Shown here piece by piece: positions 16,760 to 32,000 of a DNA stretch of 64,000 nucleotides; positions within the stretch are counted from its first letter, which is position 1; every line of letters starts with the position of its first letter. The position numbers and the translations under genes were made by a program. The notes beneath the pieces are model-generated. The model did not search any database, was not told the DNA's origin, and was given only the letters and a program-made list of their open reading frames with translations. The stretch comes from Elusimicrobiota bacterium (GTDB taxonomy: Bacteria; Elusimicrobiota; Elusimicrobia; UBA1565; UBA9628), in NCBI GenBank assembly GCA_003151975.1, contig PLZD01000067.1, forward strand, positions 1,143 through 65,142, read 5' to 3'.

Positions 16760-16802
16760 CCGAAGGAAATGGTTTGACTCCGAAGGATATGGGTAGAAAA
16801 CC

Positions 16803-18668
16803 ATGATCCAAGGCCACCAGCCGCTGCACGACCGGCTCTCCATCATGTGGAACTTGGTGCTTTGGTCGGGCGTGGCTTTGCTGATCCGCCTTTTTCAACT
16901 CCAGCTCTATCAGAACGTCGAGTACAACGAGCTCGCCCTGCACAACAGCACGCAGATGATCTATCAAACTGCCCCGCGGGGCCGCATATACGACCGCAAC
17001 GGCCTGGCCCTGGCCACGAGTCAACCCGCCTTCTCTTTGATTTACCTGCCGCCGAAGGTCAAGGAGAAGGCCGACCTCAAGCCTTTGGCCGCCGCGCTCT
17101 CCAAGCAGCTCGGGCAGGACCCCGAGGCCCTGCTCGAGACCCTGCAAGAGGCCGTGCGCGAGCAGACGGCCCTGCGGCTTGCGGAAAACCTCCCGCGCCA
17201 GACCTATTTCCGCCTCAAGGAGATCGAGACGATCTACCCGGGCATCGATCTCATCGAGGAAGCGCGCCGGTATTATCCGCTGGGGCGCTTCGCCTCTCAT
17301 CTGATCGGCTATATGGGGAAGATCGATATTCAAAGCTATAAGCAGCTGAAGAACCAAGGCTACCGCGTCGATGCCCGGATCGGCAAGCTCGGCATCGAGA
17401 AGATTTTCGAGAAGGTTCTCCGTGGTCGCGACGGCGGCATCCGCATGGTCGTCGACGCTCAGGGGCGCCTCAAGCGGCGCTTAGGATCCTTCAAGTGGGA
17501 GACCGGCAGCAACATCCACCTGACGATCGATGCCGCCATGCAGTCCGCCGCCGACGAGGGCCTGCGCAAGTCGCTGACCGGGCGCGGGGCCGTCGTGGCT
17601 ATCGATCCGCGCAATGGCGCCATACTCGCGCTCTCCTCGACGCCGGATTTTGAGCCCAATCAGCTGCTTTCCTCCGATCCGGAAGTCGTCAAGTCCGCCA
17701 AGGCCGGCCTCGACTGGAACAACCGCGCCATCTCCGGCGTTTACCCGCCGGGCTCGGCCTTCAAGCTGATCGTCTCGGCGGCGGGCCTCAACGAGGGTCG
17801 CCTGAACACGCAGGACACGATCTTCTGCCCGGGCTATTTCGAATTGGGAAAAAATATTTTCCTGTGTTGGAACCACAAGGGCCACAAGCGCGTCGATTGG
17901 TGGCAGGGGCTCGCGCAGTCCTGCGACGTCTTCTTCTACCATCTTGGTCTCAAGGTCGGCGGGGATTTGATCGAGCGATACGAGACCGCCTTCGGCTTGG
18001 GACGCAAGACGAGCATACCGGGATTTGAACACTGGGAGAAGTCGGGGCATCTTTTCGGTCCGCAGACGCGCAAGACGGCCGGCCGCGGCTGGTGGGAGGG
18101 CGACAGCGTCAACCTCGCCATCGGCCAGGGCGAGCTGCTCGTGACTCCGATCCAGTTGGCCGTCATGATGTCGGCGATCGCCAACAAGGGCACGCTCTAT
18201 CGTCCCAATTACATCGATCGCATCGAATACGCCGACGGGCGCCCCGCGTACGAGCAAAAGCCGGAAAAGCTGGGCACTGTCGCTTTGAAGGATTCGACTT
18301 GGGCGACGCTGCAAGCGGGCATGGCGCTGGTCGTCTCGTCGGGGACAGGCATCTCGGCGAGGATCTCCGGCCTCGACGTGCGCGGCAAGACCGGCACGGC
18401 GCAGAATTCCGGCGGCGATGACCATGCGTGGTTCGTCGCCTACGGCGCGCGCCCGGGTGAGCCGTCGGCGGTCGCCGTCGCCGTGCTCGTCGAAAACGGC
18501 GGCCACGGGGCCTCGGTGGCCGCGCCCATCGCGCGCAACATCATCCTCGCGGCCTACCACCTCGAGGATAAAGGCGGAAGGATTATCCCCTCGACCGGAA
18601 CTCTATCCATACCCATTCCCGCCACGCCGATGCGCGCGGGCCCCGGGCCGGCGGTGAGGACCCTCTAA
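16803..18668 (+). CDS. mrdA: penicillin-binding protein 2 (elongasome transpeptidase)
   Basis: 621 aa with an N-terminal TM, the SxxK motif (PPGSAFK) and KTGTA. It lies upstream of rodA. Confidence 0.93.
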   Translation: MIQGHQPLHDRLSIMWNLVLWSGVALLIRLFQLQLYQNVEYNELALHNSTQMIYQTAPRGRIYDRNGLALATSQPAFSLIYLPPKVKEKADLKPLAAALSKQLGQDPEALLETLQEAVREQTALRLAENLPRQTYFRLKEIETIYPGIDLIEEARRYYPLGRFASHLIGYMGKIDIQSYKQLKNQGYRVDARIGKLGIEKIFEKVLRGRDGGIRMVVDAQGRLKRRLGSFKWETGSNIHLTIDAAMQSAADEGLRKSLTGRGAVVAIDPRNGAILALSSTPDFEPNQLLSSDPEVVKSAKAGLDWNNRAISGVYPPGSAFKLIVSAAGLNEGRLNTQDTIFCPGYFELGKNIFLCWNHKGHKRVDWWQGLAQSCDVFFYHLGLKVGGDLIERYETAFGLGRKTSIPGFEHWEKSGHLFGPQTRKTAGRGWWEGDSVNLAIGQGELLVTPIQLAVMMSAIANKGTLYRPNYIDRIEYADGRPAYEQKPEKLGTVALKDSTWATLQAGMALVVSSGTGISARISGLDVRGKTGTAQNSGGDDHAWFVAYGARPGEPSAVAVAVLVENGGHGASVAAPIARNIILAAYHLEDKGGRIIPSTGTLSIPIPATPMRAGPGPAVRTL

Positions 18669-20008
18669 TGCCGATCAAGGTCGAGTCGGGAGTCAAAGGC
18701 CGGTTGGATCCGCCCTTTCTATTCGCGGCCGGCGGCCTGCTCGTCATGGGCAGCATCGCCATGCTTTCGGCGGCCAATCCCCTGCCCTACTACGCCCAGA
18801 TCGTGACGCGGCATTCCTTCGCCGTCATTGCGGGCATCGCGGCGCTCGTGCTGGGCTTGAGCTTCAACTACCAAGTCTTCCAGGACCAGGCCAAGGTCGT
18901 CTACGGGCTCATCTTCGCGCTGCTTTCGGCCGTGCTGGTGGCGGGCTCGACGCATAAGGGCCACCGCTCGTGGTTCGACCTGCCCTTCTTCAGCTTTCAG
19001 CCCGCCGAGCTTGCGCGCATCGCGCTCATCCTCGTCACGGCCGCGTTTCTCGACGCGCGCGCGCGCCGCATCCGCGAATTCTCGACGGTCCTGCTGGCCT
19101 TTGGTCTCGCGGCCCCGTGGATGATCCTCATCGTCAAGCAGCCCGATTTCTCCACGATGCTGACCTTCATCCCGATCCTGATCGGCATGCTGTTCTGCGC
19201 GGGCGCCGACATCATCCATTTGCTGGCGCTGATGGGCTATGGGCTTGTGACCGGCATGATGCCGCTCTTATTCACCTACTGTCAGGTCAATTATCCTCAG
19301 CCGACGCCGGGGACTTTGCCTTACCTCATCCTGCAGACCTCCCGCATGGGGACGGCCACGGTCGTCGTCCTTGTCGGCGCGTCCTTGCTCTGCTTGGGTG
19401 CTTGGCGGCTCTCCATCTGGCTGCGCATGCAGGCGCGCTCGGTGTTCTTCATCGCCGTACCAATCATTTTGGCGGCCGGAATGTTGTCTGGCATCGTGAT
19501 CAACAGCCGGCTTAAGAGCTATCAGCGCAACCGCTTCGTGGCTTATGTCGCGCCGCAGGCTGACATCCAGGGCGCGGCCTATCACGTGCATCAAAGCCAG
19601 ATCGCCATTGGCTCGGGCGGACTTCTGGGCAAGGGACTTTTCTCGGGCACGCAGAGCCAGTTGGGCTTTCTGCCCGAGCGTCACACGGACTTCATTTACG
19701 CCGTCGTCGGAGAGGAGATGGGATTTGCGGGGACGACCGTCATCCTCGGGCTGTACCTGCTGCTGATCTGGAGGATCGTGACCATCGCGCGCACCGCGCG
19801 GGACCGCTACGGCTATCTCGTCTGCTGCGGGCTGGCGGTCATGTTCGGCTTCGAATTCGTGCTCAATGTCGGGATGTGCGTCGGCCTGCTGCCCGTGGCC
19901 GGCATTCCGCTGCCGTTGATTTCATACGGAGGATCGAGCCTCGTGATCACCCTGTGGTCGCTTGGCATCGTGGCGAACATCTACTCGCGTCGCTACGCAC
20001 TTTTATAG
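18668..20008 (+). CDS. rodA: SEDS peptidoglycan polymerase RodA
   Basis: 446 aa and polytopic, with PERHTDFIYAVVGEEMGF and GIPLPLISYGGSS. It has a TAATG overlap with mrdA. Confidence 0.93.
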   Translation: MPIKVESGVKGRLDPPFLFAAGGLLVMGSIAMLSAANPLPYYAQIVTRHSFAVIAGIAALVLGLSFNYQVFQDQAKVVYGLIFALLSAVLVAGSTHKGHRSWFDLPFFSFQPAELARIALILVTAAFLDARARRIREFSTVLLAFGLAAPWMILIVKQPDFSTMLTFIPILIGMLFCAGADIIHLLALMGYGLVTGMMPLLFTYCQVNYPQPTPGTLPYLILQTSRMGTATVVVLVGASLLCLGAWRLSIWLRMQARSVFFIAVPIILAAGMLSGIVINSRLKSYQRNRFVAYVAPQADIQGAAYHVHQSQIAIGSGGLLGKGLFSGTQSQLGFLPERHTDFIYAVVGEEMGFAGTTVILGLYLLLIWRIVTIARTARDRYGYLVCCGLAVMFGFEFVLNVGMCVGLLPVAGIPLPLISYGGSSLVITLWSLGIVANIYSRRYALL

Positions 20009-20023
20009 TCACTGGAGAACATC

Positions 20024-22237
20024 ATGTCCAACGAAGAAACTGATTTGAAGCAGCAAGAGCACGCGGCCAAAGAGCACGCGGCCCAAGAGCCGGCGGCGCC
20101 CGCGGCTCAGACTCCGGCGGCTCCCGCCGAGACCGCTCGCGCCGAGGCTCACGCGCCTTCCGAGCCCGAAGTCCGCGAAGCGCCGGCGCCCTCCCGCGAG
20201 GACGAATTTCCGTCGGGGCCCGTCGCGCCCACGGAGGACGTTCCGCAGCCCGCCGATGAGCCGGAGGACGACGAAGAATCCGACGACGACGAGCCGGAAG
20301 CCGAAAACTCGGAGGCCTCCGCCGAGCCCGCCGCTTCGGCTCCCGCATCGCCGGTCCAAGACGGTCCGCCGCAGCAGCCCGGGACTCAGCCTCCGGCGCA
20401 ATCCGGTCAGAATCCAGGCCGTCAAGGACAGCAACCGGGCGGTCAGGGCGAGAAGGGCCGCGACGGCGGAAGGCGCCGACGCCGCGGTCGCGGCGGTCGC
20501 GGCGGCGAGGGCCGCCAGCAGCAAGGAGGACAGGGTGGTCAAAGCCAGCAGGGACAACCGAAAGGTCCCGACCGGAACAGCGGTCGGGGCGAGGGCGGCC
20601 AGCAAGGCGGCGAGCGCCGGGAAGGCGGCCGCTCAGGAGAGCATAAAGGCGAGCGCCGCGATGGGCGCGATGGACAGCATCGCGACCGCACCGGCCAAGG
20701 CCAGCACAAGACCGAGCGTTCGGCGCACCACGACCGCGGCGGCCGCGGCGAGCGCGGAAGCCACGAGCACGTGCACCGCGGCCCGGAGCGCAACCCGAAG
20801 AAGCCCGTCAAGCGCGAGATCCTCGCCAACACGGGCTTTGACGAGAGCCGGATTGCGATCATCGAGGACGGGCGTCTGGCCGAGCTTCTTTGGGAACGGC
20901 ACAGCGAAGCCTCGATCGTCGGCAACATCTACAAGGGCGTCGTCGAAAACGTTTTGCCCGGCATCTCGTCGGCCTTCGTCAACATCGGCTACGAGAAGAA
21001 CGCCTACCTTTACATCTCCGACGTACTCGGCGAGCGCGGAGCGCCCATCGACTCGACGCTCAAAAAGGGCCAGCACATCATGGTGCAGGTCGCCAAAGAG
21101 GCCATCAGCACGAAGGGCATGAAGGTCACGATGGACGTGTCCTTGCCCGGCCGCTACCTGGTCTTTACTCCGTTCCAAAACTACGTCGGGGTCTCCAAGC
21201 ACATCGAAGACGCCGGCGAACGCCAGCGGTTGTCGGGCATCGTCGACAAGCTCGTGGCCGACATCCTGGGCGGCAAGGGCGTGGTCGTGCGCACCGAGGC
21301 CGAGGGCGCCAGCGCCGAGGAGCTCGAGCGCGAGGTCAAGTATCTCCAGCAGACCTGGCAGAACATCCAGAAAAAATTCGAGAGCACGCCGCCGCCGACT
21401 CTGCTGCATAAAGATCTCGACCTCACCTTGCAGGTGGCGCGCGACATCCTCTCGGACCAGACCTATGTCTATCTCATCGACAACAAGGAAGCCTTCAAGA
21501 ACGTGGTCGAATTCATCAAGGGGATCTCTCCCGAGCTCGAGGACAAGGTCCGGTTTTACGAGGCGAAGACGCCGATCTTCAAAGCGTTTGATCTCGACGG
21601 AGTGCTCGAGGACATCCGCAAGACCAAGGTCCCGCTGCCCAACGGCGGCTCGATCATCATCCAAGAAGCCGAGTCGCTCTGCGCCATCGACGTCAACACG
21701 GGGCGCTTCACGGGCTCCAAATCGCAGGAGGAGACCGTCACGCAGACCAACATCGAGGCGGCCACCGAAGTCGCCCAGCAGCTGCGCCTGCGCAACATCG
21801 GCGGCATCATCGTCGTCGACTTTATCGACATGCGCAAGGCCTCCAATCGAAACAAGGTCATGGAAGCCTTCGCCCAGGCCTGCCGCAACGACCGCGCCAA
21901 GATCCGGATCCTGCCCATCACGCGTTTAGGTCTTATCGAGATGACGCGCGAGCGCAAGCGTCAGTCGACGATCAGCCTTTTGACCGACGAGTGCCCCGAG
22001 TGCCGGGGCGCCGGCCGCGTCTTGTCGGCCGAGACGATCCGCATCCGCATCCAGCGCGAGATTTTCGAACTCACGGGCGGCCGCCCGGGCGGCCAAGTGC
22101 GCCTGCTGCTGCACCCGCATTTGGCGGACGTCTTTAGGTCCCAGCAAGCTGTTATTGAAAAGAACGTACAGCGCTCGGTCAAGATCGCCTCGGACCCGCA
22201 AATCCCTTGGGAGGATTACCGCATCATACTCGAATGA
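20024..22237 (+). CDS. rng: ribonuclease E/G family protein with about 260-aa disordered N-terminal extension
   Basis: 737 aa. It has an S1 domain (IVGNIYKGVVENVLPGISSAFVNIGYEKNAYLYISDV), a catalytic region (AIDVNTGRFTG, GGIIVVDFIDM) and a Zn-link (CPECRGAGRV). The first roughly 260 aa are E/P/A/G/Q/R-rich. Confidence 0.92.
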   Translation: MSNEETDLKQQEHAAKEHAAQEPAAPAAQTPAAPAETARAEAHAPSEPEVREAPAPSREDEFPSGPVAPTEDVPQPADEPEDDEESDDDEPEAENSEASAEPAASAPASPVQDGPPQQPGTQPPAQSGQNPGRQGQQPGGQGEKGRDGGRRRRRGRGGRGGEGRQQQGGQGGQSQQGQPKGPDRNSGRGEGGQQGGERREGGRSGEHKGERRDGRDGQHRDRTGQGQHKTERSAHHDRGGRGERGSHEHVHRGPERNPKKPVKREILANTGFDESRIAIIEDGRLAELLWERHSEASIVGNIYKGVVENVLPGISSAFVNIGYEKNAYLYISDVLGERGAPIDSTLKKGQHIMVQVAKEAISTKGMKVTMDVSLPGRYLVFTPFQNYVGVSKHIEDAGERQRLSGIVDKLVADILGGKGVVVRTEAEGASAEELEREVKYLQQTWQNIQKKFESTPPPTLLHKDLDLTLQVARDILSDQTYVYLIDNKEAFKNVVEFIKGISPELEDKVRFYEAKTPIFKAFDLDGVLEDIRKTKVPLPNGGSIIIQEAESLCAIDVNTGRFTGSKSQEETVTQTNIEAATEVAQQLRLRNIGGIIVVDFIDMRKASNRNKVMEAFAQACRNDRAKIRILPITRLGLIEMTRERKRQSTISLLTDECPECRGAGRVLSAETIRIRIQREIFELTGGRPGGQVRLLLHPHLADVFRSQQAVIEKNVQRSVKIASDPQIPWEDYRIILE

Positions 22238-23811
22238 GGATGAGCGCTCTCTTGCTGTCATTGGCGCTGTCGGCTCCGCTCGCCGCGGAGGAGATCGGCG
22301 TCTCCGTCGGGGGGAAAGCCCGCGACGCCGTCGAATCCTACAAGGTGGGCTCGACTTATTACTTGAGCGCCCAACAGGCCGCCGCCATCTACGGCTGCCA
22401 AGTCTACTGGTATCCCGTCTCGGGGCGCCTGCAGATGAGCGCGCGCGGCAAGTCCCTGCAGTTCCTGGTCGGCTCCGACGAGGTTTCGGGTTTAACTGAG
22501 CCCGTGAAGCTCGACGCCGCGGTCATGCTGCGCACGTCGCACGCCTTCATCCCGATGACCTTCTTCCTCTCGGAGGAGTTCTCGGCGTTTGCCGGGGTGG
22601 AGAGCGTCTTCAATGCGCGCACGAAATTCCTGAGCGTCGAGCGCAGAAGCACGGTGGGCTCGGTGCGCTGGTTCTCCTACAACGACGCCACGCGCCTGAC
22701 CGTCGAGCTCGACAAGAGCCTCTCCTACAAAAGCACTTCGCGCGGCGTGGGCGGCGTCGAATTCGTCTTTCCGTTCGGCAGCATCGCGTCCAACGAGAAC
22801 GCCCAGATCGAAGACGGGATCTTGGGCTACTACGCCTTAAACCAGCGCTCCAACGCCGTAGCACTCGCGGTGAAGCTCGAGGATTCCAAGGTCCATTGGC
22901 GCGTCAAGGAGGTCGCCGAGCCGCGGCGTCTCGTGATCGATTTCTATCGCGGCGAGCTTCCATCCTTGCCGGCCGTCGAGACTCATCCCGTCGCCGCGCC
23001 CACCGTCGTAGCACCCGCGCCCAAAAAAGAAGAGGAGGAGGCGCAGTCCGCTCCTGAGACTGCGGCCCCGACTTCCCCGTCCCAGGGTCCGGTGATCGTG
23101 GGGGGAAAGGACGACAAGGTCAGGCGCCGCATCGTCGTCGACGCCGGGCACGGCGGGAAGGACCCGGGCGCGTCGGGCTACCACGGCACCGCGGAGAAGG
23201 ATTTTAACCTGCTCGCGGCCCAGGAACTCGCGAAGCTCCTCGCCCAGGAGAAAACCTTCGAGGTCATGCTGACCCGCAACGACGACACTTTCGTGCCGCT
23301 GGCCGACCGCTCGCGGCTGGCCAACGAGTTCGGCGCCGACCTGTTCATCTCCCTGCACTGCAACGCGTCCAGAAAACGCCAGGATGAGGGTTTCGAAGTG
23401 TACTTTCAGAGCGAGACGTCCTCCGACCCCGAGGCGCAGAAGGTCGCCGACCTCGAGAACTCCTCCATCGAACTCGAGGGCAAGACGACCCAAGACGCGC
23501 AGGCGGAGATGATCCTCGGAGAGCTCTCCAAAACGGAGTTCATCAACGCCTCCTCCGAATGGGCGGCCTTGCTCGCGCGCGACATCGGCAAGCGCGTCGA
23601 CGTGGAAAACCACGGCGTCAAGCAGGCGGGCTTCTACGTGCTGCGCGGCACGCACGCGCCCGCGGTGCTCTTCGAGATGGCCTACATCACGAACAAGTCC
23701 GACGAGGCCAAACTTGAGTCCAAGAAAATCCGGCGCAAGATCGTCGACGGCGTCTACGCGGGGATACTCGATTACGCCAAGCGCGAGGGTTGGATGGCGA
23801 GGCCAGACTAA
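22234..23811 (+). CDS. N-acetylmuramoyl-L-alanine amidase (AMIN + Amidase_3 type)
   Basis: The start MRMSALLLSLALSAPLAAEE (signal peptide) sits in an ATGA overlap with the rng stop. An AMIN-like N-terminal domain is followed by the amidase core (RIVVDAGHGGKDPGASG, ISLHCNAS, VLFEMAYITN). Confidence 0.9.
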   Translation: MRMSALLLSLALSAPLAAEEIGVSVGGKARDAVESYKVGSTYYLSAQQAAAIYGCQVYWYPVSGRLQMSARGKSLQFLVGSDEVSGLTEPVKLDAAVMLRTSHAFIPMTFFLSEEFSAFAGVESVFNARTKFLSVERRSTVGSVRWFSYNDATRLTVELDKSLSYKSTSRGVGGVEFVFPFGSIASNENAQIEDGILGYYALNQRSNAVALAVKLEDSKVHWRVKEVAEPRRLVIDFYRGELPSLPAVETHPVAAPTVVAPAPKKEEEEAQSAPETAAPTSPSQGPVIVGGKDDKVRRRIVVDAGHGGKDPGASGYHGTAEKDFNLLAAQELAKLLAQEKTFEVMLTRNDDTFVPLADRSRLANEFGADLFISLHCNASRKRQDEGFEVYFQSETSSDPEAQKVADLENSSIELEGKTTQDAQAEMILGELSKTEFINASSEWAALLARDIGKRVDVENHGVKQAGFYVLRGTHAPAVLFEMAYITNKSDEAKLESKKIRRKIVDGVYAGILDYAKREGWMARPD

Positions 23812-23812
23812 A

Positions 23813-24616
23813 ATGAAGAAAAGCCAACGCCCTATCGGCGTTTTCGACTCCGGCATCGGGGGCTTGACCGTACTCTCGGCGCTGGCGCGCCGCATGCCCA
23901 ACGAGCACCTGATTTATTTCGGAGACACGGCGCACGTTCCTTACGGTTCAAAATCCAAGGAGGCCGTGACGCGATTCTCGCTGGCCATCGCGCGCTTCTT
24001 GGAATCCAAGGGCATCAAGCTGCTCGTCGTGGCCTGCAACACCTCATCGGCCCTGGCCTTGCGCGAATTGAAGAGCGCGTTGAAAATCCCGGTTTTGGGC
24101 GTCATCGAGCCCGGCGCGCGCGCGGCGGCCGCCGCGACGCGCAACGGGAGAGTCGCGGTCATCGGCACCGAGGCGACCGTCCGCTCCGGCGCTTATGTCG
24201 CCGCGCTCAAGAAGAAGCGCCCCGGCATCCACGCGAAGGCACTGGCCTGCCCGCTCTTCGTGCCGCTTGTGGAGGAGGGTTGGTGGGGCCATCGCGTGAC
24301 CTCGGAGGTCGCCAAGGATTACCTCAAGCCCTTGCGCGGTTCGGGGATCGACGCGCTGATCCTTGGCTGCACGCATTACCCGCTTTTGAAGAAGACGATC
24401 TCCAGGGTCGTGGGCCCTAAAGTTCGGCTCATTGATTCGGCCGAGCAGACGGCCGTCGAGACCGAGGAACTGCTCGACGAGATGGGGCTCAAGCGCCGCG
24501 GCGGTCCCGGGAGACGCGAGTTCTACGCCTCGGACGCTCCGAAGCGCTTCTTGAGGATCGCCCGTCTGTTGGGCGTGAAGGCAAAATCGGTCAAGCTGCA
24601 CCCATTTGACGCATGA
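23813..24616 (+). CDS. murI: glutamate racemase
   Basis: ATG 23813 lies 1 nt after the amidase stop and gives MKKSQRPIGVFDSGIGGLTV. The catalytic Cys contexts VVACNTSSA and LGCTHYPLL are present. The track start at 23714 lies inside the amidase gene. Confidence 0.94.
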   Translation: MKKSQRPIGVFDSGIGGLTVLSALARRMPNEHLIYFGDTAHVPYGSKSKEAVTRFSLAIARFLESKGIKLLVVACNTSSALALRELKSALKIPVLGVIEPGARAAAAATRNGRVAVIGTEATVRSGAYVAALKKKRPGIHAKALACPLFVPLVEEGWWGHRVTSEVAKDYLKPLRGSGIDALILGCTHYPLLKKTISRVVGPKVRLIDSAEQTAVETEELLDEMGLKRRGGPGRREFYASDAPKRFLRIARLLGVKAKSVKLHPFDA

Positions 24617-25197
24617 AAGAATACGCGAAGCTCGTAGGTCTTGCGAAATCCGCCGTCGACAACGGCTTCTCGCGCGTGGGCAAGTCGCTCGACAAGGGCA
24701 GCCCCGTCGACGAGGCGCTGATGCTGCTGTCGGCGCGCGCCGTCGCGGTCGGCAACGCGATCGTCGTGCTGGCGCAAGAGTCGCTGTCCAACGAAGCCTT
24801 GCCGCTCTTGCGCTCGCTCTTTGAACTTGCGGCCGCTATGCGCTGGCTCGTCGCGGAGGACCGCGAGAAGCGCGCGCGGGAAGTGCTCGCCGAGGCGCGC
24901 GCCTCCGATTGGGAGATGCTGTGGAAGACTTCCCGACTCAAAGAGCGGCTGCCGCTGCTTGAGTTGGCCGACGGCGACGCGCGGCGCGCGCTTGGGTTAT
25001 GCGTGGATTTCATGTGCGCCAACACGCAAGGCCTGCCGTGGGGGCACGTTTTTGAAGGGAACAAGGAGACCGGAGTAACGTCGGCCGAGCTCTTGAGGCT
25101 CGCGGCGATCGCCTCCGGTCATGTGGTCAAAGCTTTGGACGCGCGGTGGCCAGGGAAGTTCGAGGGCGCCGAACAACTGTGGGAGAAGGCAAAATGA
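24613..25197 (+). CDS. hypothetical protein (helical, no recognisable motif)
   Basis: 194 aa with ATGA overlaps at both ends (to murI and to rho). Its codon usage matches its neighbours. No signal peptide or TM was seen. Confidence 0.6.
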   Translation: MKEYAKLVGLAKSAVDNGFSRVGKSLDKGSPVDEALMLLSARAVAVGNAIVVLAQESLSNEALPLLRSLFELAAAMRWLVAEDREKRAREVLAEARASDWEMLWKTSRLKERLPLLELADGDARRALGLCVDFMCANTQGLPWGHVFEGNKETGVTSAELLRLAAIASGHVVKALDARWPGKFEGAEQLWEKAK

Positions 25198-26342
25198 TGA
25201 GCGACGACAGAAGGGGCGGGCAAGGCGGTCAGGGCGGCGGAGGCGGCGGCCAGGGCGGGCAAGGCGGCGGATCCGGTGGATCCGGCGGGTCCGGCGGGTC
25301 CGGCCAGCATCACAACCGCGGCGGGCGCAACCGTCACCGGCACCACCGCGGCGGCCAAGGCGGCGGCCAGCAAGGCGGCGGCCAGCAGGGCGGCGGCCAG
25401 CACTTCAATCGCCCTCCCCAGCACAACCAGGGCAACCGCAGCAATCCCTCGCCCGCGCGCGCCTCGTCCAACGTCGTCAGCGACATCGAACGCGCCTACA
25501 ACGCCAAGACCCCGATCGATCCCAAGGAGTGGATCCAGCTGGAAAAAGGCAGCACGGAAATCTCGATGCGCGCCATGGACCTGCTCTGCCCGATCGGCCG
25601 CGGCACGCGCGGCCTCATCGTCGCGCCCCCAAAGGCCGGCAAAACGACCTTCCTCAAGCAGATCTCGAACGCCGTCCACGGCTTCGACCCGAAGATCAAG
25701 CAGTACTGCCTGCTCATCGACGAGCGCCCCGAGGAGGTCACGGATTTTAAGCGTTCGGTGCCCGCCGAGGTCTTCGCCTCCTCCTCCGACCAGAGCTACG
25801 AGAAGCACATCACGGTCGCCAACGAGCTCATCAAGCTCGCCGTCGAGCAGGCCAGCACCGGGCAGGACGTGTTCATACTGCTGGATTCCCTGACGCGGTT
25901 GGCCCGCGTGCACAACCAGTTCGCCACGGGCAATCGCACGATGACCGGCGGCTTGGATTCGCGCGCGATGGAAGTTCCGCGCCGATTTTTTGGCGCCGCG
26001 CGCAAGCTCGAGGAGGGAGGGTCTCTCACCATCTTGGCGACCATACTCGTCGACACCGGCTCGCGCATGGACGAGGTCATCTTCCAGGAGTTCAAGGGCA
26101 CTGGCAACATGGAACTCGTGCTCTCGCGTCAGGCCGCCGACATGCGCATCTTTCCGGCGATGAAGGTGCGCGAGTCGGGCACGCGCAAGGAAGAAAAGCT
26201 CCTGCCGCCCGCGATCATCGAGGGCGTCTGGAAGCTGCGCCGGGCTCTGGCCGACAAGGGCGACATCGACGCGTTGAAGTCCCTCGTCGAGGCCCTGCGC
26301 GTGCACAAGACCAACCACGCCTTCCTCGCGGCTCTCAAGTAA
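25194..26342 (+). CDS. rho: transcription termination factor Rho, atypical: G/Q/S/R/H-rich N-terminus instead of canonical N-terminal RNA-binding domain
   Basis: 382 aa from the ATG in the ATGA overlap. The ATPase core is clear ([64 protein letters not shown]). The first roughly 95 aa are low complexity ([30 protein letters not shown]...). Confidence 0.9.
   Translation: [382 protein letters not shown]
25269..25304 (+). repeat. 9-nt tandem repeat x4 (GGATCCGGT-like; encodes GSG units) inside the rho low-complexity region
   Basis: The four consecutive units ggatccggt ggatccggc gggtccggc gggtccggc were read directly from the sequence. Confidence 0.85.
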
Positions 26343-26719
26343 TGAAGAAGGCGATCGCGACTCAGAACGCGCCGCAGGCGATCGGGCCTTACTCGCAGGC
26401 CATCGAGTCCGGCGGCTTTGTGTTCGCGTCTGGGCAGATTCCGCTCGATGCTTCAGGAAAGATGGTGGAAGGCGGGGTGCGCGAGCAGACCGAGCGGGTC
26501 CTGTGCAACCTCGCCGCGATCCTGGCGCAAGCGGGATTGGGCCTGGAGCACGTCGTCAAGACGACCGTCTTCATGACAAACCTAGGTGAGTTCGCCGCGA
26601 TGAACGAGGTCTACGCGAAGCATTTTGCGGCGCCGCATCCAGCGCGAGCGACCGTGCAGGTGGCGGCGCTTCCCAAAGGCGCCGCCGTCGAGATCGAGGC
26701 GGTCGCCTCCAGAGCGTGA
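26342..26719 (+). CDS. ridA: RidA/YjgF family reactive-intermediate deaminase
   Basis: 125 aa with APQAIGPYSQAIESGGFVFASGQIPLD and ARATVQVAALPKGAAVEIEA. It has a TAATG overlap with rho. Confidence 0.92.
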   Translation: MKKAIATQNAPQAIGPYSQAIESGGFVFASGQIPLDASGKMVEGGVREQTERVLCNLAAILAQAGLGLEHVVKTTVFMTNLGEFAAMNEVYAKHFAAPHPARATVQVAALPKGAAVEIEAVASRA

Positions 26720-27813
26720 TCCCAATGAAAAGAATCGCTTGTCTGCTCGTCTTGCTGGGCGCGGTCGGACCACTGCGCGCCGAAGAGCCGAAGAAGGCCT
26801 TTATTTTCGTGGTTTCCGCGGGCGCCGGATCGCAGATTTTTCCGCCGAGCGAACTGGAACGCCGGCGTGACGCGGAAAAGAATTACTACGAGGCGCAAGG
26901 CTACAAGGTCGAGGTCGCGCCCGCCACGCAGGACGCTGTGTTCGACGCGATCGCCTCCGGTGCTTCCGCGATTTCGTATCTCGGCCCCGCGGCAGAAGGC
27001 GCCCTCGAGCCGACGTTGTTGGGCCTCAACGCCCGCGTTTGGAAGGGTGCGGCCGCAGTTTATTATTCGATGAAGCACGCCGACGTGCCTAAGAACCTCG
27101 GCCTGCAAGTCCTGCGTAATTTCTCGTGTCGCAGTCTCTGGGACAACAACCTCGCGGAGCTTTTCGTGCGGCCCGGCGGCCATTACTTCGGGGCCAAGAG
27201 CGACCTCGCCCACGATCCTTCCTACGAGAAGCTGGCGGGTGTCGTCGAAGGCTGCACGCAAGGCGGCGACTGCCGCTGCGCGACCGTGGGTCTATACTCG
27301 GCCGGCGATCTCAGGGATTACGAACTGCCTCGCCGCAAAGCGGAAACCGCGGCCGTTGCTTCCGCGGCGCCGTCTGTCCCCGTGATGCCGGCCGCGCTCG
27401 CGCCCGCAGCACTGCCGGCGGTGGCAGTACCGCAGGCGGCGGTGCCGCAGGCGGCGGTGCCGCAGGCGGCATCGCCGGCGCTGCCGCCGGGCCCGCTGTC
27501 GGGGACTTGGTACATTTCGCCCACCGGCACCATCGTGATCGACCAGCGCGGCGAGCAGGTCAGCTGGGTGCTGACGGTTCCCGACCGCAGCGTGCGCCAC
27601 GAGGGCCACGGCACTTTTTCCAACTCGATGCTCAACGGCGCCTTTGAGGACGCCGAGGACCCCACCGGCCTGCGCGCCGGCGAGTTCAAGGGTTTCCAGC
27701 TGACCTCCGAGGGCAAGCTTTGCGGCCAGGTGCGCTGGTGGAACAAGATTGATGCGGCGCGCGGCTCAGGGATGGGTTTCGACTGTTACTCGCGGCAGCC
27801 GCTTAAGAAGTAA
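26716..27813 (+). CDS. secreted hypothetical protein, two domains joined by an A/P-rich repeat linker
   Basis: 365 aa with a GTG start in a GTGA overlap with ridA (alternative ATG at 26725, MKRIACLLVLLGAVGPLRAEE, which is a signal peptide). The C-terminal domain is Cys-containing. No family was recognised. Confidence 0.65.
   Translation: MIPMKRIACLLVLLGAVGPLRAEEPKKAFIFVVSAGAGSQIFPPSELERRRDAEKNYYEAQGYKVEVAPATQDAVFDAIASGASAISYLGPAAEGALEPTLLGLNARVWKGAAAVYYSMKHADVPKNLGLQVLRNFSCRSLWDNNLAELFVRPGGHYFGAKSDLAHDPSYEKLAGVVEGCTQGGDCRCATVGLYSAGDLRDYELPRRKAETAAVASAAPSVPVMPAALAPAALPAVAVPQAAVPQAAVPQAASPALPPGPLSGTWYISPTGTIVIDQRGEQVSWVLTVPDRSVRHEGHGTFSNSMLNGAFEDAEDPTGLRAGEFKGFQLTSEGKLCGQVRWWNKIDAARGSGMGFDCYSRQPLKK
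27424..27480 (+). repeat. 15-nt tandem repeat, about 3.5 copies (encodes AVPQA units)
   Basis: The units gcagtaccgcaggcg gcggtgccgcaggcg gcggtgccgcaggcg gcatcgccggcg were read directly from the sequence. Confidence 0.85.
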
Positions 27814-28852
27814 GCTCGGGGAGTTCGAAAAAGAAGGCTGTTCCTTTTCCCGTCGTAAATCCTATGCGCCCGCCGTGTCGCTCGACGATGGCCTTCGAAA
27901 TCGCCAAGCCCAGGCCGGAGCCGCCCTTCTTGTGGCCTTCGGCCTGCGCGAACCGTCCGAAAATCTTATCGCGAAAGGTCTCCGGTATGCCGGGACCGTC
28001 GTCGCGGATGCTCACGCGAAGTGACGCGGCGTCGCGCTCGATGCTCGCGCGTACCACGCCGCCCTCGGGTGAGAACTTGACGGCATTCGAGAGCAGATTG
28101 GTCAACACCTGGCGCAGGCGGTCGGGGTCGCCCATGACCTTGGCGCCGGGAAGTCCGGCCCTCATTTCGAGGGTGACGCCGGTCTTGGCGCCCAGCCCGC
28201 GCGCCGATTCGAGAATGGACTCCGTCAACGCCGAGAGCTCGAGCGGCTCGAGCTTGAGCGGCGCGGCCCCCGAGGTCAGCTTTTCGATGCTGAGATAATC
28301 GTTTATGAGATCCAGCATGAACTGGCTGTTGCGCATGGCCATGCCCAGCATCTTCTCCGCCGTGTCGGGGTGGCGGCGGGCCAGCTCAAGCGAGCCGATG
28401 ATCGCGGTCAGCGGCGAGCGGAGCTCGTGGGTGGCGAGTGCTATGAGCTCGTCCTTCATGGCCTCGACCTTGCGCCGCTCGGTCACGTCGCGGAAGACCG
28501 CGCGTACGTACTCGGCTTTGCCCGCGTCGTCGAAGCGGTAGTTGATGAAGCCCTCGACCTGGAACTCTGTCCCATTCTTGGAAACGAAGATGCGCTGAAT
28601 CTCGCGCAAGGTCTCTCCCGCGGCCAGCTTCGCCTCGTTTTCCGCGACCAGCACCCGCTGGTCGGGGTGCAGGACGTCGTGGGCGTTCATGCTGTTGATC
28701 TCGTCCTGTGAGTAGCCCAGCTTCTCGCGCCAGGCGCGGTTGACGTAAAGGATGCGGCCCCCGGGCGTGGCGAGGATGACGAGGTCGTCGATGTTCTCGA
28801 GCAAGTCCTCGAGGCGCTGGGTCTCCGCGGCGGGAAGTTGGGCGAGCGTCAT
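27803..28852 (-). CDS. cytoplasmic PAS-domain sensor histidine kinase
   Basis: 349 aa with no TM. It has a PAS region (ILATPGGRILYVNRAWREKLGYSQDEI), an H-box (ATHELRSPLTAIIGSLELA), an N-box (LTNLLSNAVKFSP) and G-boxes (DDGPGIP, GGSGLGLAI). Confidence 0.92.
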   Translation of the reverse strand: MTLAQLPAAETQRLEDLLENIDDLVILATPGGRILYVNRAWREKLGYSQDEINSMNAHDVLHPDQRVLVAENEAKLAAGETLREIQRIFVSKNGTEFQVEGFINYRFDDAGKAEYVRAVFRDVTERRKVEAMKDELIALATHELRSPLTAIIGSLELARRHPDTAEKMLGMAMRNSQFMLDLINDYLSIEKLTSGAAPLKLEPLELSALTESILESARGLGAKTGVTLEMRAGLPGAKVMGDPDRLRQVLTNLLSNAVKFSPEGGVVRASIERDAASLRVSIRDDGPGIPETFRDKIFGRFAQAEGHKKGGSGLGLAISKAIVERHGGRIGFTTGKGTAFFFELPELTS

Positions 28853-29008
28853 AGCTTATCTCATTGAAGCTCTACGGGCGGGAATTGTCAATAAGGCGCG
28901 CCCCTTCCTTTAATATGGCGCCAAAGCAACGCTGCGTCCTTTGACCCAAGCGAAGTTAGGCCCATTAACCGCTTCGTTTGGCCCAAAGGGCCCGAGCCCC
29001 GGGTCCAT

Positions 29009-32000
29009 TTGCAGTGCAATAATGGGTCTATGTTGCGGCGCTTCATTGCTACCGTTGTCTGCGCGGCCCTTATCGTGGCCTGCCCCGGCATCGAGTCATA
29101 CCACGCGATAGCCGGCGAGCTCGGCGAGATCAATGTTGGCGCGCGGCGCGCGCCCGCCCTTCCCGCTCTGCCGACCGCGATCCTGCCCGGCATCGCCAAC
29201 ATCACCCAGCTCTCGCAGACGCCGGGAAATCTAGCCACGGTCACCGAGGTCGCAACAGTTCATTCCGCGATCGCGACGCCTGGCGCGGCCGCTGCAAACA
29301 CTTCTTCGATCTCGAACGCCTCGGCGGTTGCTCAGCCTGAGACGGCGGAGGTTGAAAATGCGGGAAAACTGATCACACCGGAGGTCTTGGCGGGACTCAA
29401 CGCCACGACTAAGGGCGTCTCGGAAGCCGTCGAGGCCCTCGCCAAGCCCGATCTGAGCGCCGAGGGCGCGCACGCCGTCGGCGTCCGCCTCGAAGGCGCG
29501 GTTTCGCCTGCGGTCTCCGCCGAAGAGATTTCTCCCGCGGCCTCGGGCTTCTCAAATTTCTCGGGTAATGTTCATGCCAAGCAGAAGCGCGGCCTCGTCC
29601 AGTCCGTCGGCTTCTTTGCGAAAGCCAAGGGCTTCGTCCGCACAATTTCGGTCGCCGCGGTTCTGACGATCGCAACACTCGGCGGCCCCGTGCTGGCCCA
29701 GACCGTTCCGCAGGGCCCGGCGCCGGCCGGCCAGCAGCAGCAGGTTCCAGCTCCCGCCCAGCCCGGCGCGCCCGTGCTCGGCGCGCCTCAAGACACGGTC
29801 CAGGCCGAGGAGCCCGCGCCCAAGCAAATCGGACCCATCTCGGCGACCATCGCGATCCAAGGCCAGAACATGACGGTCGGCGATCGCTTCCACATCGCGC
29901 TCACGCTGACCAACAGCTCGGATAAGCCGGTCACGATCGCCAATCTGCGGAACTCGCTCAACGACGCCCTGCCCACGGACGTCGAGCTGCAGATGAACTC
30001 AGGGTCGGACGCCGTCACGCTAAAGCCCGGCGAGACGCAGACGGTCGTCTTCGAGACCATCGCGTTTGCCTCGGGCGACATCGCGATGGGCGGCCCGCTG
30101 ATTTTCAACGCGCAGCTCAATGGCCAGGCCGCCGAGATGCAGGCCATACTCGCCGACGGCGCGATCACGGTCAAGTCGGTCCTCACGCCCGATTGGAAGA
30201 AGATCGGCTTCAAGGATATCTACAGCGTCCTGCGCCAGGACGTGCCGCTCTGGGCGTGGCTGGCGGCGATCCCGCTGCTGCTGTCGCTGCTCGTCGCCGG
30301 CGAGCGCGTGCTCGCGGCCCAGCGCCGCGGCGCCAAGGTCCTCTCGGTGGGCCAGCCGCTGCTGGTCTCGACGCGCGCGCGCATGAAAGCGCTCGAAGGC
30401 GCCTTGGAGCAAAACGACGCGGCGTTCTACGCCGAGTACTACTCCATACTCTCGACTTTCCTGATCGACTCGCACGGCTTGTCCGTCAAGGAGCGCGACG
30501 CCAAGACCTTGATCTCGGACCTCAAGAAGGCTAAGAAGCTTTCCTCGGGCCAGCTTAAGGTCGCCTCAGATTTAGCGTTCTCAGCGGAAGCCGCGCGGTT
30601 CGGCGGCCGCGCTACGACGGCCGAGCAGCGCTCCGCCGACCTCGCGGCTCTGTCGTCTCTCGTGGACAACATCGCGGGTGCTTCGAAGACGCAGAAAACC
30701 GAAGGCCTACACAGCCTCGGCGGGCCGATGACGGGCCTGCAGTTCGGCAACCCCTACGCGCTGCTGCTCTTTTTGCCGCTGGCTGGGTATCTGGCTTGGA
30801 AGTTCATAGGCCGCAAGCAGGCCAGCGCCCAAGCCGCTTACCCGCTCTCGACGCTTTCCTCGGTCTCGCCGCGCAAGAGTTTCCGCCAGCGCTTCGGTTG
30901 GCTGACGAAGGGCCTTCGCGCCGCCGCCGTTTCCTTAATTCTGCTCGGCATCGCCGATCCCCAACTCGGCGTGCGCCGCCAGGAGACCATCACGCCGTCG
31001 ACCGACACTGAGCTCATCATCGACGTGTCGGGTTCGATGGACGAAGCCTTCAACGGTTCCGGCAGCCCCAGCAAGCTGGTGGCCGCCGAGGAGGCGATGA
31101 AGGCCTACATCAACGAGCAGCGGCGCGGCACGCAGAACCGCGTGGGCTTGGTCACTTTCTCGGACGAGTCTTACGTCGACATCCACCTCACTCAGGACTA
31201 CGACGCGCTGATCGCGCACTTGAAGGAGCTGCATACGATTTCTTCGACGGCGATCGGCAAGGGCATACTGACCGCGACGGGCCAGTTCCTCGAGGCCAAC
31301 GCCTACGAGCTGACCTCGCAGGACGACCCGCGCATCATCGAGGTTCAGCGCCTCATCCGCACCGAAGGCCTCGGCGCCGCTCTCGAGTATGCCAAGCCCT
31401 ACCCGGACCTCATGGACAAGATCGTCCGGCCCGACCGCAAGAAGGTCATCGTCCTTTTCACGGACGGCGAGTCCAACACTGGCCTTGAGCCCATCCCGGC
31501 CTCCGAGATCGCGGCGAAACTTGGCGTGCGCATCTACACGGTCGGCATCGCTCCCAAGGGCGGCACGGGCGTGGGCTACGATGAGAACACGCTGGTCACG
31601 GTGGCCAAGAACACCGGCGCGCAGTTCTTCCGGGCCGATGACGCCGACCGCATGCGCGAGATCCTGCTCGAAATCAATCGCCTCGAGAAGAGCCCGACCA
31701 AGATCGTGTCGGCCGTATCGGTCCAGAGCTACCAGCAATGGTTCATCATGCTGGCGCTGCTGGCGCTGGGCTTGGAGCTTGGCCTGGCCAACACGAGATT
31801 GCGCGTGCTGTCGGGCTTCTTGATGTTCACTTTGCCGTTCGGCAGCGTCGTCAATTTCAACCCGGCGCAGCAGCCTGCCGCGATCGTGCAGACCGTCGAC
31901 GCCCAGGCCCCGGCCGCGGAATCCGCTTTGCCGACCACCGGCGTGCCCGCCGAGGTCGCCGCGGCCAATCTGCTCTTCAACTCGGGCCGGTATGACGAAG

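Follow-up and report, generated by a model that had tools for sequence, protein, structure and literature searches.

The OB-fold primary RNA-binding site is held to be a defining and essential part of Rho, in which it picks out C-rich rut sites and, by allostery, helps the ring to close. Shorter members of the family were reportedly set apart as 'Group B' by D'Heygere et al. in 2013. In the latest systematic survey (Moreira et al. 2024, PMC11347177), a 'functional Rho' is defined by the presence of the OB domain, the data set consists of RefSeq complete reference genomes only, and a 'Rho-like' bin of single-domain proteins is set aside as non-functional and described in the supplement only.

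Two architectures in that survey bear on the gene analysed here. Type 4, or 'Group B', short Rho lacks the helix bundle and keeps the OB RNA-binding domain; its example is the essential Rho of Fusobacterium nucleatum. Type 2 Rho, found in M. tuberculosis, M. luteus, B. thetaiotaomicron and C. botulinum, carries a compositionally biased, disordered region of variable length, rich in Arg, Gly, Gln and Asn and marked by 'RxR' and 'QN' motifs, which in all described cases is added to an intact OB fold. Arg-rich versions of this region raise RNA affinity, among them the Arg-rich insertions in the Rho of M. tuberculosis and M. luteus, and some phase-separate, the disordered region of B. thetaiotaomicron Rho driving this process (PMC11347177, PMC10284900). 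Removal of the first 27 N-terminal residues of E. coli Rho abolishes RNA binding, according to work cited in PMC11347177, so losing the N-terminal domain should have serious consequences unless something makes up for it.

Rho Identity and Conservation of the Predicted Motor

The 64 kb window, meaning the whole stretch of DNA that was analysed, contains a rho gene (25194-26342; 382 aa and a stop codon) that encodes a disordered tail, a connector and a RecA-type ATPase domain. All features cited here lie on the + strand. A Shine-Dalgarno-like GGAG can be read in the sequence at 25182-25185, 8 nt before the ATG at 25194. The protein scores 371.9 bits against the NCBIfam Rho equivalog model NF006886 (cut-off 315), with aa 100-380 aligned to profile positions 131-412 of 413. 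Its 351.4 bits against TIGR00767 fall short of the cut-off of 509.45 bits for full-length Rho because the N-terminal 130 profile positions are missing. In phmmer searches of the PDB, it matches T. thermophilus Rho (E 7e-85) and E. coli Rho (E 7e-80), the latter with residues 135-416 corresponding to aa 104-381. The best 50 Foldseek matches in the PDB are all Rho, aligned over about 280 columns, and PDB 6DUQ is among the fold matches. Identity of the C-terminal domain to E. coli Rho is about 47% in our own alignment and 46-49% by Foldseek, rising to 54-55% for T. thermophilus Rho by Foldseek. The preliminary description had restricted the homology to about residue 130 onward, and NF006886, phmmer and the solved Rho structures agree, placing it at E. 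coli residues ~131-416.

Membership of the short-form model paralog_Rho2 (NCBIfam NF041509) was considered and rejected. The 382-aa protein reaches 304.4 bits and neighbouring short Rho proteins 314-417 bits, against a cut-off of 628; the alignment covers profile positions 79-360 of 360, and the OB part of that model (positions 1-78) is missing here.

The predicted RecA-type RNA translocase and its putative central-channel secondary RNA-binding site are fully conserved. Rho alignments begin at aa 100-104, within a connector (aa 95-140; 25476-25613) that includes the short helix SDIERAY, placed at aa 97-103 by AlphaFold2, and the segment TPIDPKEW; residues E99, P107, D109, P110 and W113 of the connector are invariant in the homologue alignment. 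The RecA-type ATPase core follows (PF00006; aa 125-328; 25566-26177), with Walker A at 25623-25646, the catalytic Glu and Arg valve at 25710-25736, Walker B at 25872-25889, the Q-loop at 25923-25961, the R-loop DTGSRMDE at 26052-26075 and the Arg-finger segment SGTRKEE, equivalent to E. coli R366, at 26175-26195. Walker A and B, catalytic Glu211, the Arg valve R212 and the Arg finger R366 are all found in the protein, as is the secondary site formed by the Q-loop (K283, T286, GG) and the R-loop (T323, K326). Across 241 family members, K184, T185, E211, R212, R269, G287, G288, T323 and R366 are invariant; the Walker B residue D265 is kept in 240 and K181 in 211 of them, while Q-loop K283 and R-loop K326 are R or K throughout, save for one Gln at 326.

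Loss of the N-Terminal RNA-Binding Domain

Profile searches and structure prediction together show that both the helix bundle and the OB fold, and with them all of the primary RNA-binding domain at the N-terminus, have been lost, with a predicted tail joined straight to the connector. Pfam detects PF00006 alone in the 382-aa protein, with no match to Rho_N (PF07498) or Rho_RNA_bind (PF07497), the latter being absent at E<=0.1. An OB-domain HMM of our own, which was built from an E. coli seed sequence and whose sole validation is the recovery of 129 of 150 diverse Rho representatives, picks up a degenerate OB in the protein P0132 that Pfam overlooks. With filters off, this HMM gave no match at E<=10 in the 382-aa protein or its first-search relatives, and across the 241 family members its lone match at E<=10 is at chance level (E 9.8). 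Our Rho_N HMM drew a blank on the protein and on every reading frame of the 64 kb, and the best values in a six-frame scan of the whole window were E 0.9 for the OB HMM and E 0.6 for the Rho_N HMM. In an AlphaFold2 monomer model, a structure prediction of the kind suggested beforehand for this N-terminus, aa 1-93 have pLDDT <50 and no secondary structure. The earlier reading that the canonical N-terminal domain is missing, with a Gly/Gln/Arg-rich disordered tail instead, is thus borne out. A hidden divergent OB fold within the tail was rejected, given the sensitivity of the HMM to the OB of P0132, the lack of any significant match in the family and the predicted disorder.

The connector and ATPase domain match those of canonical Rho (PDB 1PV4/1PVO, 3ICE, 8HSJ), whereas the Rho_N helix bundle and the OB/cold-shock-like site, with its RNP1 GFGF and related motifs, give way to a 94-aa disordered cationic tail. 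The helix bundle is missing in Type 4 Rho as well, but that form keeps its OB domain: in the same precomputed Pfam column, PF07497 appears in 120 of 120 listed nearest short OB-bearing Rho and in 0 of 240 listed relatives of the present protein, which falls outside Type 4. Compared with Type 2 Rho, where the disordered region supplements the OB, here it stands alone N-terminal of the connector. Having an ATPase domain but no PF07497, the protein lies outside the 'functional Rho' of Moreira et al. and, with one Rho domain detected, would qualify for their 'Rho-like' bin; unlike that bin, the OB-less form is conserved, shows purifying selection and extends through a whole lineage. It is undescribed in the accessible parts of two systematic Rho surveys, both limited to complete reference genomes.

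A Cationic Tail of Variable Length

The low-complexity cationic tail (aa 1-94; 25194-25475), delimited by composition, AlphaFold2 and HMMs, replaces the helix bundle and OB fold. The low complexity and the Gly/Gln/Ser/Arg/His bias reported for this segment are confirmed by a composition count: the first 95 aa hold 36 Gly, 13 Gln, 10 Arg, 9 Ser, 7 His and 7 Asn, with a single aromatic residue. The tail has a net charge of +8, 7 His, three RGG motifs and no Tyr. Its first part consists of Gly/Gln and (Gly-Gly-Ser)4 tracts (25214-25304), which include a 13-residue stretch at aa 25-37 and derive from 21/30-nt repeats at 25214-25271 and a 9-nt tandem repeat; the latter had been noticed beforehand and was recovered by Tandem Repeats Finder at 25265-25304 (4.4 copies, 90% matches). 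A basic core follows (aa 41-54; 25314-25355), whose equivalent in homologues is GGRRRRRRRGGRGR; this R/H-rich block is the sole roughly alignable piece of the homologue tails in alignment A1. Next come a (GGGQQ)3 tract (25353-25402), produced by a 15-nt tandem repeat (25356-25402; 3.1 copies, 96% matches by the same program), and a Pro/Asn/Ser-rich linker (aa 73-94; 25410-25475). Homologues carry an R-P-P...P-Q-x-P consensus just ahead of the connector.

Tail composition is kept in homologues. In a set of 188 tails, each of at least 15 aa, every one carries a net positive charge (+2 to +12, mean +7.9); R makes up 16%, K 1.3%, D+E 3.5% and hydrophobic residues 9%. Length ranges from 15 to 120 aa, and 87% have at least five R/K/H within some 10-aa window. 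Positive charge, rather than length or sequence, is the conserved property of the tail, which appears to be under selection for charge. The tail is nevertheless not indispensable for the family, since in the sub-lineage L018 / P0321 the connector is preceded by a stretch of only about 23 residues, which is not basic.

In being Arg/Gly-rich, net positive and predicted to be disordered (pLDDT <50), with RGG motifs, the tail has the sequence attributes of an arginine-rich or RGG-type disordered region. Like such regions in RNase E, eukaryotic RGG proteins, phage N and Tat-type peptides, it combines a Gly-flanked poly-Arg core with RGG triplets, although RNA binding is putative here. It differs from many phase-separating RGG domains in having no Tyr and almost no aromatic residues at all, which argues against strong self-driven phase separation.

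Distribution and Evolutionary Setting

An OB-less Rho is, judging by the genomes compared, a lineage-wide trait and not a peculiarity of one gene. The same architecture was found in at least 120 relatives from each of two protein searches (240 listed in all), and named relatives among the matches listed are mostly Elusimicrobia/Elusimicrobiota. It recurs in 21 species-level genome loci, 19 of which are titled Elusimicrobia or Elusimicrobiota, and in a closed 3.8 Mb genome (CP096137.1) with the same synteny. The identical protein occurs on 3 contigs, and full-length identity, tails included, is 66-91% across the aligned high-GC relatives. Compared with the 92% identical relative L003, the indels measure 3, 15, 24 and 3 nt, every one in frame; the 15-nt indel lies within the tracts at 25214-25304, and the 24-nt one is a deletion in L003 within the (GGGQQ)3 tract. 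A sequencing error, raised earlier as a possible cause of the missing domain, is excluded by the agreement of independent assemblies, by indels in multiples of three and by the lack of OB or Rho_N coding potential in all six frames of the window. A frameshift that would restore an N-terminal domain was likewise rejected: the six-frame scan is empty, and the upstream gene is complete and conserved in the closed genome.

Tailed, OB-less Rho is found mostly in uncultured Elusimicrobiota, and similar proteins without an OB are encoded in MAGs that bear the names of other uncultured phyla (Hydrogenedentes, Eisenbacteria, Sericytochromatia, Omnitrophota). In an unbootstrapped NJ tree the clade adjoins short Rho forms without the helix bundle, its closest OB-bearing relatives being Type 4 proteins of Acidobacteriota, Calditrichota and Planctomycetota; the names found among the nearest OB-bearing relatives also include Bacteroidota. 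No Elusimicrobia-labelled OB-bearing Rho is present among the at least 120 nearest OB-bearing short Rho listed, and the names found for the 20 nearest representatives are non-Elusimicrobia only. Two related short Rho proteins, P0142 and P0140, have a basic disordered N-terminus ahead of the OB fold, which suggests that the tail may have pre-dated the loss of the OB.

Genomic Neighbourhood

By its gene order, rho sits in a conserved housekeeping cluster that reads rpoA, mreB, mreC, PBP2, rodA, RNase E/G, amidase, murI, DUF5677, rho and ridA. The ORF immediately upstream (24613-25197), described beforehand as bearing no resemblance to the Rho N-terminal domain, is indeed unrelated to Rho: it is a complete DUF5677 gene (PF18928, E 7.7e-9), translationally coupled through a TGA at 25195-25197 that overlaps the rho ATG. 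DUF5677 lies upstream of rho in 14 of 15 high-GC Elusimicrobia loci, L023 being the exception. In L014 an inserted gene stands between the two, in L008, L009, L016 and L017 they lie a similar ~1.7-2 kb apart, and low-GC loci have no DUF5677 near rho; an obligate partnership is not supported by these arrangements. Downstream, ridA (L-PSP family; 26342-26719; PF01042, E 1.5e-42) overlaps the rho stop by 1 nt at its start and is kept in most high-GC loci.

The RNase E/G gene (20024-22237; Pfam RNase_E_G at aa 373-644) lies 3 kb upstream of rho and begins with a disordered-looking N-terminal extension (20024-20809) bearing a poly-Arg and Gly/Gln motif like that of the Rho tail. A poly-Arg stretch of 14 residues (20465-20506) is followed by QQQGGQGGQ, and the segment is conserved in the closed genome (L002). 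Among all genes of the window only Rho and RNase E/G have such a segment, and the Rho tail used as a tblastn query cross-matches the RNase E/G extension (E 0.05). Neither tblastn nor the six-frame HMM scan revealed a second rho within the 64 kb window. Terminator-like hairpins in the window number 21 against 17.5 +/- 4.1 expected, a count that is uninformative on Rho dependence.

Proposed Mechanism and Alternative Explanations

We give an even chance to the reading that the Rho motor works and that its cationic tails, standing in for the OB site, take hold of RNA without specificity. Six tails per ring, with a total charge of about +48, would emerge on the face that normally bears the OB crown and would seize naked nascent RNA electrostatically, with little sequence preference, as an arginine-rich or RGG motif does. 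The RNA could then be passed to the Q- and R-loops in the channel, after which ATP-driven 5'->3' translocation and termination would proceed as in canonical Rho. Target choice would be set by RNA accessibility, with untranslated, unstructured transcripts favoured, and perhaps by contacts with NusG or RNA polymerase, instead of by YC-dinucleotide recognition. The Gly/Gln/Ser tracts would serve as spacers that change readily in evolution, growing and shrinking through repeat slippage, and they may favour RNA-driven condensation, possibly together with the motif-sharing RNase E/G. The suggestion that loading may occur through an RGG-like tail is consistent with the net-positive tails, their basic windows and the three RGG motifs. 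We infer, more weakly, that the 382-aa protein is the housekeeping Rho of these organisms.

The 382-aa protein could instead be an accessory paralogue, a second and specialised copy beside a canonical Rho encoded elsewhere in the genome, which might join hetero-hexamers and so use the OB of other subunits in trans, or might serve only some RNAs; we regard this as rather unlikely. The position of the clade next to short Rho forms without the helix bundle in the unbootstrapped tree would fit such an origin, but the nearest Type-4-like forms are not known to be second copies in Acidobacteriota. An 'Elusimicrobia' groundwater sequence with a Rho N-terminal domain in one published alignment (PNAS 2024, PMC11441560) indicates that a canonical Rho may exist in some members of the phylum. 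Elusimicrobiota are also not among the phyla without an OB-containing Rho in the accessible part of Moreira et al. (PMC11347177); if cultured Elusimicrobiota were in that data set, cultured members have an OB-containing Rho. Weighing against a specialised copy are the lack of a second rho in the window, the housekeeping setting of the gene, the high full-length identity among high-GC relatives with invariant or nearly invariant catalytic residues, the failure of both the protein and its tree neighbours against paralog_Rho2, and the absence of Elusimicrobia-labelled proteins among the listed nearest OB-bearing relatives. An artefact, in which a frameshift, mis-assembly or decay into a pseudogene removed the N-terminal domain, can practically be discounted: GC-rich low-complexity repeats are prone to assembly error in principle, but no support for one was found, and the identical protein on 3 contigs, the 240 listed relatives, 21 loci and closed genome sharing the architecture, the in-frame indels, the OB- and Rho_N-free frames of the window and the complete, conserved DUF5677 gene all speak against it.

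The NusG KOW domain binds the C-terminal domain of Rho and promotes ring closure. Contact with RNA or polymerase might be supplied in trans by a partner that recruits the motor, leaving the tail mainly to regulation or condensation, a reading that we consider unlikely. Candidates would be NusG KOW acting on the ATPase domain, tethering to RNA polymerase, a free cold-shock-domain protein, a separately encoded Rho N-terminal domain or the neighbouring DUF5677 protein. The nearly tail-less L018 / P0321 favours such recruitment, as does the coupling of DUF5677 to rho here and its upstream position in most high-GC loci; yet the broken adjacency in L014 and four other loci and the absence of DUF5677 near low-GC rho tell against that partner, the window encodes neither an OB nor a Rho_N domain, and the positive charge shared by all the tails speaks for contact with nucleic acid. 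The degradosome of Rhodobacter capsulatus reportedly contains Rho. A further reading, in which the OB-less motor is no terminator but an RNA translocase or helicase re-purposed for an RNA-decay assembly and co-localised with RNase E/G through the common poly-Arg and Gly/Gln module, is suggested by the restriction of this motif type to the two proteins in the window and by its retention in the closed genome. This reading is very improbable, as all Rho-type translocation residues are kept, the NCBI Rho equivalog model is passed and the physical link to RNase E/G is putative; a decay function would, moreover, be compatible with termination.

Conclusions

Capture of RNA by the cationic tails of a working motor leads to a broader proposition, put forward tentatively and at somewhat less than even probability: that a large clade of Elusimicrobiota, and probably lineages of other uncultured phyla, terminates transcription with a Rho that lacks any primary RNA-binding domain. 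If this is true, Rho-dependent termination would not everywhere require sequence-selective rut recognition by an OB crown, a generic disordered tail with positive charge would be enough for ring loading, and nearly tail-less forms would be loaded by recruitment to NusG or RNA polymerase alone. The poly-Arg and Gly/Gln module shared by the two proteins, Rho and RNase E/G, would in that case be the sign of an RNA-handling condensate peculiar to the lineage, in which termination is linked to decay. The OB-less form also shows that surveys confined to cultured, complete genomes overlook major architectural variants of core transcription factors.

A strongly conserved, lineage-wide OB-less Rho would be a natural minimal Rho. 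It would open a long-standing question to direct test, namely what share each of RNA sequence recognition, tethering to RNA polymerase or NusG, and unspecific capture has in the loading of Rho. Because its disordered tail is not backed by a folded RNA-binding domain, it would also offer a clean system for the contribution of Arg-rich disordered regions to Rho.

The Rho Protein and Its Missing Domain

The rho gene of the window (25194-26342, + strand) encodes a protein of 382 aa. Good support for its start comes from a GGAG 8 nt 5' of the ATG, from the overlap of this codon with the TGA that ends the preceding gene (ATGA), and from homologues, which share the first residues MN(E/D)(E/D). From about residue 100 on, sequence and fold comparisons identify the product unmistakably as Rho. 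NCBIfam model NF006886 scores 371.9 bits against a cut-off of 315, its profile positions 131-412 corresponding to aa 100-380; phmmer against the PDB retrieves Thermus Rho (E 7e-85) and E. coli Rho (E 7e-80; aa 104-381 matching E. coli 135-416), and the best 50 Foldseek matches are Rho chains only, with ~280 aligned columns each. The ATPase domain PF00006 is the only Pfam match, and public databases label such proteins "transcription termination factor Rho". An antisense ORF of 399 aa (25119-26318, - strand) runs across nearly the whole gene; it is typical of high-GC DNA and is taken not to be a gene.

Residues 1-94 are of low complexity, which bears out the preliminary description of a Rho with such a segment in place of the N-terminal RNA-binding domain. 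Four independent lines, drawn from homology searches and structure prediction, indicate that this domain is really gone. Neither Pfam nor NCBIfam finds Rho_N (the helix bundle, PF07498) or Rho_RNA_bind (PF07497, the primary RNA-binding site, hereafter OB) in the window protein. The precomputed Pfam assignments were checked on the nearest OB-bearing short Rho proteins listed, a positive control in which all 120 carried PF07497. A missing Pfam match alone is nevertheless weak evidence, since PF07497 also misses the degenerate OB, devoid of GFGF, of a 393-aa Rho relative (P0132; locus L083, 8001-9182), which our own, more sensitive OB model detects at 9e-11. Our OB and helix-bundle HMMs were seeded with an E. 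coli Rho sequence and refined by iteration over 150 diverse representatives of Rho; OB recovery in 129 of these is the sole validation of the seed. At E<=10 with filters off, the OB model found nothing in the window protein or in those first-search relatives whose sequences were retrieved, and its lone match at E<=10 among all 241 family members was at chance level (E 9.8). A scan of all six frames of the 64 kb likewise showed no coding potential for OB or Rho_N (best E 0.9 and 0.6), which leaves no domain that a frameshift could reconnect. The ORF upstream of rho, already judged unlike the Rho N-terminal domain, is a complete gene for a DUF5677 protein and has the equivalent position in a closed genome.

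The fourth line is an AlphaFold2 model built on a 21-sequence alignment, of modest overall confidence (mean pLDDT 60), in which aa 1-93 have pLDDT <50 and no secondary structure; a helix at 97-103, in the connector to the ATPase domain, is the first structured element.

A Cationic Tail of Drifting Length

The first 95 aa comprise 36 Gly, 13 Gln, 10 Arg, 9 Ser, 7 His and 7 Asn, and include only one residue that is aromatic. The tail has a net charge of +8 and three RGG motifs, which confirms the RGG-like character first proposed for it. Its coding DNA holds tandem repeats of 21/30 nt (25214-25271), 9 nt (25265-25304, 4.4 copies; the repeat noticed initially) and 15 nt (25356-25402). A DNA alignment of the gene with its 92%-identical relative at locus L003 has indels of 3, 15, 24 and 3 nt, each of them in frame and within the repeats. 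This shows that the tail is translated and that slippage of the repeats makes its length drift.

Across the family, tails can be aligned only at a basic block, of which the typical form in homologues is GGRRRRRRRGGRGR. Tails no shorter than 15 aa, 188 in number, vary from 15 to 120 aa in length, yet all carry a net positive charge (+2 to +12, mean +7.9), so that by these comparisons it is the physical character of the tail, its positive charge, that is conserved and not its length. They contain 16% Arg, 1.3% Lys, 3.5% acidic and 9% hydrophobic residues, and 87% of them have at least five R/K/H within some 10-aa window. Among the sequences read, long Gly/Gln tracts go with high-GC loci and short R/N/P/S-rich tails with low-GC loci.

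About 14% of annotated family members begin at the connector. Some of these, database entries of 280-295 aa, probably stem from truncated gene calls with an internal Met past the tail as start: for P0089 (L004, 5851-6885) and P0102 (L023, 5737-6864), the ORFs run upstream through a basic tail. At locus L018 (5956-6858; proteins P0321, P0330 and P0407), only ~23 non-basic residues truly precede the connector, with a stop codon 3 codons upstream of the start, and the Rho of this lineage is effectively tail-less, consisting of connector and ATPase domain.

The motor is conserved. In E. coli numbering, K184, T185, E211, R212, R269, G287, G288, T323 and R366 are invariant in the 241 family members and D265 is kept in 240; Q-loop position 283 and R-loop position 326 (both Lys in E. 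coli) are K or R throughout, except for one Gln at 326.

Conservation Among Relatives and Gene Neighbourhood

Taken across its relatives, the OB-less architecture is real biology. Three contigs carry the identical window protein, and the best 120 database relatives, of 280-408 aa, have PF00006 only, and each taxon name given among them is Elusimicrobia or Elusimicrobiota. A second search, seeded with lower-GC relatives, added at least 120 more clusters of the same architecture, the named ones being Elusimicrobiota apart from two MAGs, one labelled "Verrucomicrobiae" and the other "Omnitrophica". A scan of species-representative genomes gave 21 loci of 50-73% GC, all without OB (19 titled Elusimicrobia/Elusimicrobiota, two "uncultured bacterium"). 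The closed chromosome CP096137.1 (3.8 Mb) carries one of the relatives, P0110, and keeps the order amidase, murI, DUF5677, rho, ridA. A frameshift or mis-assembly artefact is refuted by the three contigs with the identical protein, the closed genome, the in-frame indels and the six-frame scan.

In the window, rho belongs to a housekeeping cluster of rpoA, mreB, mreC, PBP2, rodA, RNase E/G, amidase, murI, DUF5677, rho and ridA. The DUF5677 gene (24613-25197, +; 9400-9999 in L002, the closed-genome locus) is translationally coupled to rho through the ATGA overlap, and the first nucleotide of ridA (L-PSP/YjgF family; 26342-26719, +) is the last of the rho stop codon. DUF5677 is found upstream of rho in 14 of 15 high-GC Elusimicrobia loci (the exception is L023), separated from it by a 606-aa ORF in L014 and by similar gaps of ~1.7-2 kb in L008, L009, L016 and L017; the low-GC lineages lack it near rho. 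Downstream of rho, ridA is kept at most high-GC loci. The RNase E/G homologue (20024-22237, +) bears a ~260-aa N-terminal extension (20024-20809) in which an acidic Ala/Pro/Glu-rich block is followed by a poly-Arg motif (20465-20506, +), then by QQQGGQGGQ and Gly/Gln/Arg repeats. This motif is of the same type as the Rho tail, is kept in the RNase E/G of the closed genome (L002, 4649-5650), and occurs in no third gene of the window. Intrinsic-terminator-like hairpins in 16000-35000 numbered 21, against 17.5 +/- 4.1 expected from shuffled sequence, an uninformative result without enrichment. Further along lie an ORF of 3029 aa (29009-38098, +; 3022 aa in the source assembly) with no recorded Pfam family and, just after it, a MoxR-type AAA ATPase gene (38095-39612).

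Evolutionary Placement

In a neighbour-joining tree of ATPase domains, which carries no support values and is indicative only, the OB-less Elusimicrobia proteins form one clade. Near it stand other OB-less Rho proteins with PF00006 only, namely P0137 (Ca. Hydrogenedentes), P0234 (Ca. Sericytochromatia), L080 (Ca. Eisenbacteria), P0131, P0127, P0173 and P0255, together with short Rho proteins that have an OB and no helix bundle (Acidobacteriota, Calditrichota, Bacteroidota, Planctomycetota). In P0142 and P0140, a basic disordered N-terminus precedes the OB, and P0132 looks like an intermediate in the erosion of the N-terminal domain. Because the tree neighbours include OB-bearing short Rho, the tailed P0142 and P0140 and the degenerate P0132, a stepwise erosion is suggested, in which the helix bundle was lost, a basic tail gained, and the OB degraded and then lost. 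ATPase-only Rho with a basic low-complexity N-terminus is seen in P0137/P0285, P0234, L080 (5284-6864), L024 (5881-7071), P0127, P0173, P0205, P0255 and the P0131 cluster, the last on contigs of 4.4-4.9 Mb that are apparently closed genomes; with the three candidate-phylum names above as MAG labels among them, OB-less Rho may be a wider phenomenon among uncultured phyla.

Possible Mechanism and Alternatives

The Rho translocase and its secondary RNA site are intact and the primary site is absent; the disordered tail, conserved for positive charge, is joined on where the OB crown would be. Loading through the tail is plausible. Six tails, at ~+48 per ring, would grab exposed nascent RNA non-specifically and pass it into the channel; specificity would move from YC recognition to RNA accessibility, perhaps with NusG or RNA polymerase contacts, and the Gly/Gln tracts could be spacers or condensation-prone segments. 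RNA binding would then depend on the tail, be sensitive to salt and show little preference for C or YC. There are precedents: Arg-rich insertion regions raise the RNA affinity of M. tuberculosis and M. luteus Rho, and a disordered region drives phase separation of B. thetaiotaomicron Rho (PMC11347177, section 34; PMC10284900); these proteins retain the OB, unlike the window Rho. The nearly tail-less L018/P0321 sub-lineage warns against ascribing everything to the tail.

The main rival is that the gene encodes an accessory paralogue beside a canonical Rho. A 2024 PNAS alignment (PMC11441560) includes an "Elusimicrobia" Rho N-terminal domain, so some part of the phylum may have a canonical Rho; however, the 64 kb window holds no second rho, the gene sits in housekeeping synteny, the family is strongly conserved and the protein falls short of the paralog_Rho2 model. 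RNA or the polymerase might also be contacted in trans through a partner (NusG, RNA polymerase, a cold-shock protein, a split N-terminal domain or DUF5677), although DUF5677 is not consistently adjacent to rho. For re-purposing as an RNA-decay helicase, the motif common to Rho and RNase E/G is the only hint.

Relation to Known Rho Proteins and Significance

In Moreira et al. 2024 (PMC11347177), which surveyed 2730 RefSeq complete reference genomes, a functional Rho is defined by an RNA-binding domain plus an ATPase domain, and single-domain "Rho-like" sequences are placed in the supplement. Its Type 4 Rho lacks the helix bundle alone, whereas the window Rho lacks the OB as well. Schumbera et al. 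2023 and a 2025 review treat Rho disordered regions solely as insertions beside the OB, and full-text searches that combined Rho with either name, Elusimicrobia or Elusimicrobiota, brought up nothing relevant. Within the literature reachable, a conserved, lineage-wide OB-less Rho is undescribed. A conserved Rho without its primary binding site would surprise a Rho specialist, and it makes loading independent of that site experimentally approachable.
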